From Escherichia coli (GTDB lineage: Bacteria > Pseudomonadota > Gammaproteobacteria > Enterobacterales > Enterobacteriaceae): 374 nucleotides of DNA. The translations under genes were made by a program, and so were the position numbers. Under the pieces are notes generated by a model that was not told the DNA's origin, searched no databases, and saw nothing but the letters and a program-made list of their open reading frames with translations. Positions 1 through 348 of this stretch are shown here, in pieces (the first letter of the stretch is position 1; each line of letters begins with the position of its first letter). Location of the stretch: NCBI RefSeq assembly GCF_003334815.1, contig NZ_QOWO01000133.1. The stretch is one strand, 5' to 3'.

Positions 1-348
1 GATTTTCTGTATGCCGAGGCGTATGTGTACGCGCTGGCGCAAAAAATGATGCCGGAATATCAGGGAGGCTTCTGGCACTTCATCCGCCTGCCGGACGGTG
101 GCGGTTACATGATGCCGGATGGCGACCGTTTCCACATGGTGAACGGTGCAAACTGGTTTGACCGTACCGTGAGTGCTGATGCCGCAGGCATCATTCTGAC
201 TTCCCTTGTGATTAACCGCCAGTTGTGGCTGTACCACGACAGCGGGGATGCAGGACTGACCCAGCTTTACCGGATGCGCGATGCGCAGTTGTGGCGTCAC
301 ATCGAATTTCACCCCGAATGCAACGCGATTTACGCGGCACTGGACTGA
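1..348 (+). CDS. ArdB/KlcA-family antirestriction protein, 5'-partial (N-terminus lies upstream of the window)
   Basis: Frame +1 has no stop from nt 1 to TGA at 346-348; the ORF track's 25..348 sits in this frame and the 8 codons before it (DFLYAEAY) are also open. Translation carries motifs I recall from this family: Y-x-GG-x-W (58-75), DGGGYMMPD (94-120, cf. KlcA 'DGGFYMAPD'), VNG (139-147), SADAAGI (172-192, cf. KlcA 'SADAAGI'), and C-terminal Y-R-x-RD...HPEC-x-AIY-x-A-x-D ending at the stop (cf. KlcA '...HPEAAAIYRAID', YfjX-like '...HPE..AI..ID'). The match is from memory, not a search. The GTG at 25 is a track artifact, not the start, because family homology continues upstream of it and homologs have ~35-45 more N-terminal residues. 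Confidence 0.8.
   Translation, partial: DFLYAEAYVYALAQKMMPEYQGGFWHFIRLPDGGGYMMPDGDRFHMVNGANWFDRTVSADAAGIILTSLVINRQLWLYHDSGDAGLTQLYRMRDAQLWRHIEFHPECNAIYAALD

Follow-up and report, generated by a model that had tools for sequence, protein, structure and literature searches.

The stretch of DNA analysed here, which we call the window, comprises 374 nucleotides from Escherichia coli and holds the 3′ part of an anti-restriction gene of the ardB/klcA family, followed by part of an intercistronic hairpin. Translation confirms the prediction that frame 1 is open over nt 1–24, and no stop interrupts the frame before the TGA at 346–348, which makes 116 codons including the stop. A listing of open reading frames places the start of this frame at GTG 25, with a product of 107 aa. 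DNA 5′ of window nt 1 was read from identical plasmid records, and positions marked L001 refer to the locus from one of these, pM217_I1, in which the window is L001 3001–3374 and the full ORF, of 141 aa, is L001 2923–3348. The features of the gene that lie within the window are as follows.

1–348, + strand: codons 27–141 and the TGA, the 3′ portion of the anti-restriction gene of the ardB/klcA family (yfeB in R64)
16–19, + strand: GAGG, a pseudo Shine-Dalgarno motif 5 nt 5′ of GTG 25, within codons Glu32 (invariant) and Ala33
25–27, + strand: GTG, the internal codon Val35 rather than a start; its counterpart in KlcA is V38, and it falls within predicted helix 28–42
46–48, + strand: ATG, the internal Met42, used as the start by many deposited annotations; the bases before it, GCGCTGGCGCAAAAA, are without an SD-like motif
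346–348, + strand: TGA, stop codon of the ardB/klcA-family gene

The annotated CDS starts 78 nt 5′ of window nt 1 and encodes 141 aa in L001, in L002, in L013, in R64 (for which the sequence used was NC_005014.1) and in F, and RefSeq gives the same 141 aa for the exact allele (WP_001198928.1) as well as for F and R64. Our main reading, to which we assign a probability of about 93%, is that the window holds the 3′ 348 nt of a 141-codon ardB/klcA-type gene of the plasmid leading region, that this gene starts at an ATG upstream of the window, and that GTG 25 is codon Val35. The gene is already known and is correctly annotated in RefSeq as WP_001198928.1.

More than 1,000 plasmid records match the whole window at 100% identity, and among the matches listed every 100%-identical record has an antirestriction protein CDS annotated under the match. 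A match is present in 3,508 of 5,426 complete E. coli genomes, nearly always on plasmids, and in at least 5,000 PLSDB records, mostly of conjugative plasmids, with Escherichia, Klebsiella, Salmonella and Shigella as hosts. The same 426-nt CDS occurs in IncI, IncF, R64 and F records; the copy of plasmid F (56755–57180) is identical at 412/426 nt, and the R64 copy (54478–54903) carries the gene name yfeB and encodes ArdB(R64), the protein studied in experiments. The identical 374 nt are found both in IncI-type backbones (L001 and L013) and in the IncF backbone pC15-1a (L002). These 374 nt, together with an 889-nt block of gene plus upstream DNA at 99% identity or more, are common to MOBP/IncI and MOBF/IncF plasmids, which indicates that plasmid groups have recently exchanged modules of their leading regions.

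The original prediction held that the gene is cut off by the window edge and that its real start lies upstream, out of view, together with a ribosome-binding site. Upstream extension in the identical records finds both: the ORF begins at the ATG 78 nt 5′ of the window with no in-frame stop between this ATG and nt 1, and a GGAGG lies 8 nt 5′ of it at L001 2910–2914. The combination that would have pointed the other way, a stop just 5′ of nt 1 together with a ribosome-binding site placed for GTG 25, is not what the identical records contain. The nearest in-frame stop is a TGA at L001 2902–2904, 21 nt 5′ of the ATG, and thus the frame offers no earlier start than this ATG. Codon 27 begins at window nt 1; 26 codons therefore lie beyond the window edge and 34 come before GTG 25, whereas 35–45 N-terminal codons had been expected upstream; the full length of 141 aa does fall within the predicted 140–150 aa. 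The N-terminal peptide expected of the upstream-ATG product is (M)QYAKPVTLNVEE. An ATG preceded by GGAG(G) at codon 1 is kept in 8/8 alleles, which range from 65 to 100% identity. From the sequence of these alleles we conclude that the true start is the upstream ATG with its strong SD and that GTG 25 is internal. The GTG 25 start given by the ORF finder is an artefact of the window edge, being the first start-capable codon past the boundary.

The open frame over nt 1–24 says little by itself, since 8 open codons have a chance probability of 0.74 at the composition of the window, and the weight therefore comes only from homology and from the extended sequence. KlcA (2KMG, 142 aa) aligns over its residues 6–142 with residues 5–141 of the product (E 1.8e-18), while ArdB 2WJ9 (E 3e-7) and PHROG 10132 each align to residues 11–141. 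Homology to full-length KlcA and ArdB thus extends across the N-terminus, and nt 1–24 (DFLYAEAY) are covered both by the 2KMG alignment and by 15 full-length homologues. The statement that family homology already covers nt 1–24 therefore stands, although the alignment quoted for it, 'VYALAQK...', begins at the GTG codon and does not include those bases. Across the 15 homologues, down to 64% identity, V11, R16, L17, L20, P21 and F24 are invariant, as are G25, D27, F28, E32 and, as an amino acid, V35. In codons 1–34 of close alleles the synonymous to nonsynonymous counts are 7:1, 6:4 and 7:4, which resembles the rest of the gene. Read in this way, the sequence indicates that the N-terminal codons are coding and constrained. 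A literature search for ArdB mutants R16A, E32A or W51A found nothing.

Membership in the KlcA/ArdB family, also predicted from the window, is borne out by a Pfam match to PF03230 (E 1.9e-26; residues 45–141, model positions 2–92 of 92) beside the 2KMG match; an NCBIfam scan returned no family. The product is 141 aa long, large homologue clusters run from 141 to 147 aa, and family members of 144–157 aa are tabulated in the literature (Table 1, PMC2836571). Profile, full-length homology, fold, size and plasmid location all fit, and the gene product is in the ArdB/KlcA family, PF03230. An AF2 model of the product (pLDDT 76.6 overall) matches only 2KMG (TM 0.77, 133 columns) and 2WJ9 (TM 0.72) in the PDB at E < 0.001, and in this model Val35 lies within helix 28–42. 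We dropped the AF2 model as evidence for N-terminal structure, since its confidence is low at residues 1–19 (pLDDT <50 at residues 1–15), and used instead the NMR description of KlcA, which is one rigid domain with flexible residues 3–6 only (PMC2836571). With Val35 in the middle of a helix in an ordered fold, a product started at the GTG would begin mid-helix and would be without an ordered, conserved part of the fold.

These observations bear directly on the reading in which GTG 25 is a genuine start, whether sole or alternative, and yields a 107-aa protein. A weak SD-like GAGG is indeed present 5 nt 5′ of the GTG, and public databases list the very 107-aa product expected from a GTG start, under several accessions (P0121, 36 contigs). 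The GAGG, however, is not conserved in homologues: it is lost before the Val codon in 5/8 alleles, namely R64 (where it reads GAAG), P0057, P0044, P0113 and P0059, and in P0113 the Val35 codon is GTC, which cannot initiate. The 34 codons preceding the GTG are conserved and homologous to KlcA/ArdB, and Val35 sits in the middle of a helix of a single-domain fold. As for the deposited products, in 8/8 of the contigs with a 107-aa call that we examined the interval from ATG to GTG contains a frameshift or an N-gap or is of noisy sequence, as listed here.

3–6, + strand: T4 run, site of a −1 frameshift (T4 to T3) in contigs L003 and L007
5′ of GTG 25: −1 A in L004, an N-gap in L005, +1 C in L006
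5′ of GTG 25: +2 TC in L009, +1 T in L010, many indels in L008

In view of these contigs, and judging from their sequence, GTG 25 is the fallback of gene callers on broken or badly assembled copies, and the warning that an annotation starting at 25 would be wrong is upheld by them. We consider initiation at GTG 25 extremely improbable. The lesions in L003–L010 (at about 1399–1501, the 102 nt before GTG 25) lie mostly in homopolymer or short-repeat runs, and they may be true pseudogenes or assembly errors.

A second short form is much more widespread. The 100-aa product from Met42 makes up clusters P0085 and P0100, with 1,205 and 1,378 sequences (about 2,600), and these annotations speak for ATG 46 as the real start of a 100-aa protein (MQYAKPV...), in which case the open frame upstream would be incidental; the PF03230 model, which begins at residue 45 of the product, would fit such a protein. 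In both loci with a 100-aa call that we examined (L011 1378–1803 and L012 1378–1803), however, the 141-aa ORF, its ATG and its GGAGG are intact, and thus the 100-aa call is an under-called start there. Reading of GCGCTGGCGCAAAAA finds no SD-like motif before ATG 46, the N-terminal 41 residues contain many invariant positions and align to the solved full-length KlcA and ArdB, and RefSeq gives 141 aa for the exact allele, F and R64. We therefore hold a start at ATG 46 to be very unlikely. On the sequence of these loci, the 100-aa annotation is a systematic under-call of the start, and it is commoner than the 107-aa call. That the Pfam model covers residues 45–141 only may be the reason for the later starts chosen by some pipelines.

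A third possibility is that the copy from which the window was taken is itself a damaged or promoter-less remnant, a frameshifted or deletion allele without a functional upstream start. Frameshifted copies are common, and there is a deletion allele whose junction falls inside the window, at one copy of a short repeat.

25–36, + strand: GTGTACGCGCTG, one copy of an imperfect 12-nt repeat whose partner, GTGTGCGGGCTG, lies at L001 2643–2654 in the upstream hairpin

In this recurrent allele about 380 nt are lost between GTGTGCGGGCTG and GTGTACGCGCTG (L001 3025–3036), giving a 117-aa fusion product, P0086, with 308 sequences. The deletion takes out the 3′ part of the hairpin, the SD and codons 1–34, and it joins upstream non-coding DNA to codon ~38. 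The window is not this allele, because its nt 1–24 match the intact gene and not the deletion junction. The 100%-identical records among the matches listed all have the antirestriction CDS at the match, and the 141-aa ORF is intact in 5/5 loci (L001, L002, L013, R64 and F). A remnant is thus unlikely, although a shade less so than either of the internal starts, and the reading of an intact gene that is merely truncated by the window is retained.

Two further variants were seen. The locus of the P0086 allele, L018 1201–1554, is a contig of E. coli H120 with IS elements on its flanks. A rare variant, P0102 (107 aa, beginning MCTRWRKNDAGISGGFW...), starts at an out-of-frame ATG at window position 23, which implies a −1 change in the A6 run at window 41–46 and a second, compensating frameshift; this double frameshift looks like a sequencing error. 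With one gene annotated as 141, 107 and 100 aa, and as 117-aa fusions, length clustering and pan-plasmid counts could split it.

Downstream of the stop the window runs into a short intercistronic element.

358–374, + strand: intercistronic GC hairpin GGGGCGGC-AAT-GCCGCCCC, cut by the 3′ end of the window; complete at 358–376 (L001 3358–3376)

This hairpin has 8 bp and lies 10 nt after the stop, with a fold of −18.4 kcal/mol (z = −2.8). No T-run follows it and a terminator search made no call at the site; it may be an element of mRNA stability or processing rather than a terminator. The next gene, yfeC (DUF1380), starts 46 nt after the stop, at an ATG preceded by AAGGAGA. Further on in pM217_I1 (L001 4774–6138), ssb is annotated as broken, with one partial CDS and then another partial CDS, and thus the leading region of this plasmid is rearranged just past the ardB operon.

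The promoter had been predicted to lie upstream of the window along with the start. Scanning the 417-nt spacer upstream of the gene for duplex sigma-70 promoters gave no match, and this empty scan raised the idea of a single-strand promoter. The spacer follows a terminator-like hairpin of the preceding gene and contains a long imperfect inverted repeat with arms at L001 2648–2679 and 2855–2886, which belongs to a larger element.

L001 2558–2893 (108–443 nt 5′ of window nt 1): hairpin element of ~340 nt, directly 5′ of the SD
L016 (R64) 4114–4449 and 11065–11419; L013 21611–21963; L017 (F) 12392–12726: the same hairpin element elsewhere

On either strand the element is more stably folded than every shuffle (z = −3.35 and −4.26), the minus-strand fold being −94.6 kcal/mol, with the z of −4.26. 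The consensus hairpin from an alignment of nine sequences comprises 66 pairs in which 94% of cells are paired; compensatory pairs number 20 as against 5.6 ± 2.0 in shuffles (0/500 reached this number) and 2–7 in slid controls. The 3′ arm carries TTGCAT-15 nt-TAAGAT, a weak promoter-like pair (7/12) whose TAAGAT holds a conserved internal loop of 3 nt. A transcript from this element would be expected to begin about 45–50 nt 5′ of the ATG, just 3′ of TAAGAT on the complementary arm. A scan for −35/−10 boxes (≥ 8/12) on folded T-strands found nothing, and since it likewise missed Frpo2 of F it is uninformative. An Rfam search over the gene and its flanks returned nothing at E ≤ 1.

A published candidate for a single-strand promoter, Frpo′ 4 (Samuel et al. 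2024, PMC11541004, Supplementary file 4), matches the hairpin in T-strand orientation over 339 nt at 82% identity (E 3e-88). The hairpin is also found 5′ of four diverged ardB homologues, at 67–80% identity. In IncI plasmids a copy that is 95–97% identical lies immediately 5′ of ardA and extends to GGAGGA; this copy sits 6.6 kb from the ardB copy, and within ±3 kb of the latter an ungapped repeat search and blastn found no second copy. In IncI1, ardB and ardA thus share a cassette of hairpin, 5′UTR and SD, and F has the hairpin besides Frpo1 and Frpo2.

We considered that the hairpin could be a copy of the classical Frpo/ssi elements (ssiD/Frpo1-2 of F, ssi1-3 of ColIb-P9) and rejected this, since blastn (E < 1e-3, word size 7) of the hairpin against Frpo1/2 of F and five reference Frpo/ssi sequences gave no match. 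The reference elements map elsewhere in L001, R64 and F, namely 5′ of ssb and at two further positions closer to oriT. The notion that the element upstream of ardA is ssi3 proved wrong as well, ssi3 mapping 5′ of ssb and ssi2 3′ of ardA.

In L013, R64 and F, ardB shares its strand with ssb, psiB and ardA and is directed toward oriT (the nikA or traM side). Genes transcribed from the T-strand as it enters need this orientation (PMC11541004, PMC7736820). Taken with the conserved fold, this suggests that the promoter outside the window is probably the conserved 340-nt candidate hairpin of the Frpo′ 4 type. It is plausible, though inferred, that the incoming single T-strand would form the hairpin, that the hairpin would act as a single-strand promoter, and that ardB would be transcribed early in the recipient. 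Whether the hairpin represents a second functional family of ssDNA promoters, which in F would be a third such promoter and would drive zygotic expression of ardB, we judge to be an even question. In the published experiments on F, only Frpo1 and Frpo2 were reportedly deleted. Much less likely than this promoter reading, and carrying only a very small probability in our estimate, is a shorter isoform made by internal initiation at GTG 25 or ATG 46 alongside the product of the upstream ATG.

For annotators and for work on leading-region expression, the inconsistent start calls and the Frpo′-type cassette shared by ardB and ardA may be useful. The gene itself helps IncF and IncI resistance plasmids to establish in new hosts, and our finding leaves this known picture unchanged.

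Among known systems, Frpo′ 4 is the one that the upstream hairpin resembles, with a long hairpin, a conserved CCCGGCTAAGATGGAG on the 3′ arm and compensatory changes in the stem. Unlike Frpo′ 4, the validated elements Frpo/ssiD of F and ssi1-3 of ColIb-P9 are without blastn similarity to the ardB hairpin. The hairpin is a candidate promoter by published assignment only. The protein has several relatives. KlcA of the IncP plasmid pBP136 (2KMG, 142 aa) has the same fold (TM 0.77) at ~37% identity in the structural alignment. In IncP plasmids KlcA is a member of the kilC/kor regulon and not part of a leading region of the F/I type. ArdB of E. coli CFT073 (2WJ9) also has the same fold (TM 0.72) at ~23% identity, with a chain that is longer at the N-terminus (181 residues deposited). 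KlcAHS of blaKPC-2 plasmids is in the same family, has anti-type I activity and was obtained as an amplicon of 426 bp (Liang et al. 2017, PMC5411435). We considered that KlcAHS might be the same gene and rejected this, because its primer sequences show a different allele: they encode MQTEL... and ...LAAID, as opposed to MQYAKPV... and ...YAALD here.

The closest studied relative is ArdB of R64 (yfeB; WP_001198886.1), a 141-aa protein that is identical to the product of the gene in the window at 133/141 positions (94%) and differs by S18F, N26Q, A31V, Y34S, Q40K, Q47E, M72I and A88C. Its gene occupies the same place, between yfdA and yfeC and upstream of ssb, in the same orientation toward oriT, and it is preceded by the same hairpin in a spacer that is 97.8% identical over 417 nt. 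R64 ArdB inhibits type IA, IB and IC restriction in vivo and BlihIA in vitro (PMC10149784, PMC12429846); for ArdB and KlcA together, inhibition of type IA–ID restriction in vivo is reported, without DNA mimicry, and one mechanism proposed for ArdB is a possible block of translocation by HsdR (PMC2836571, PMC10149784, PMC12429846). By homology the gene in the window encodes an anti-restriction protein of the ArdB type. R64 ArdB, at 94% identity, is reported to block in vivo the endonuclease activity of type I R-M systems, and WP_001198928.1 would be expected to work in the same way.
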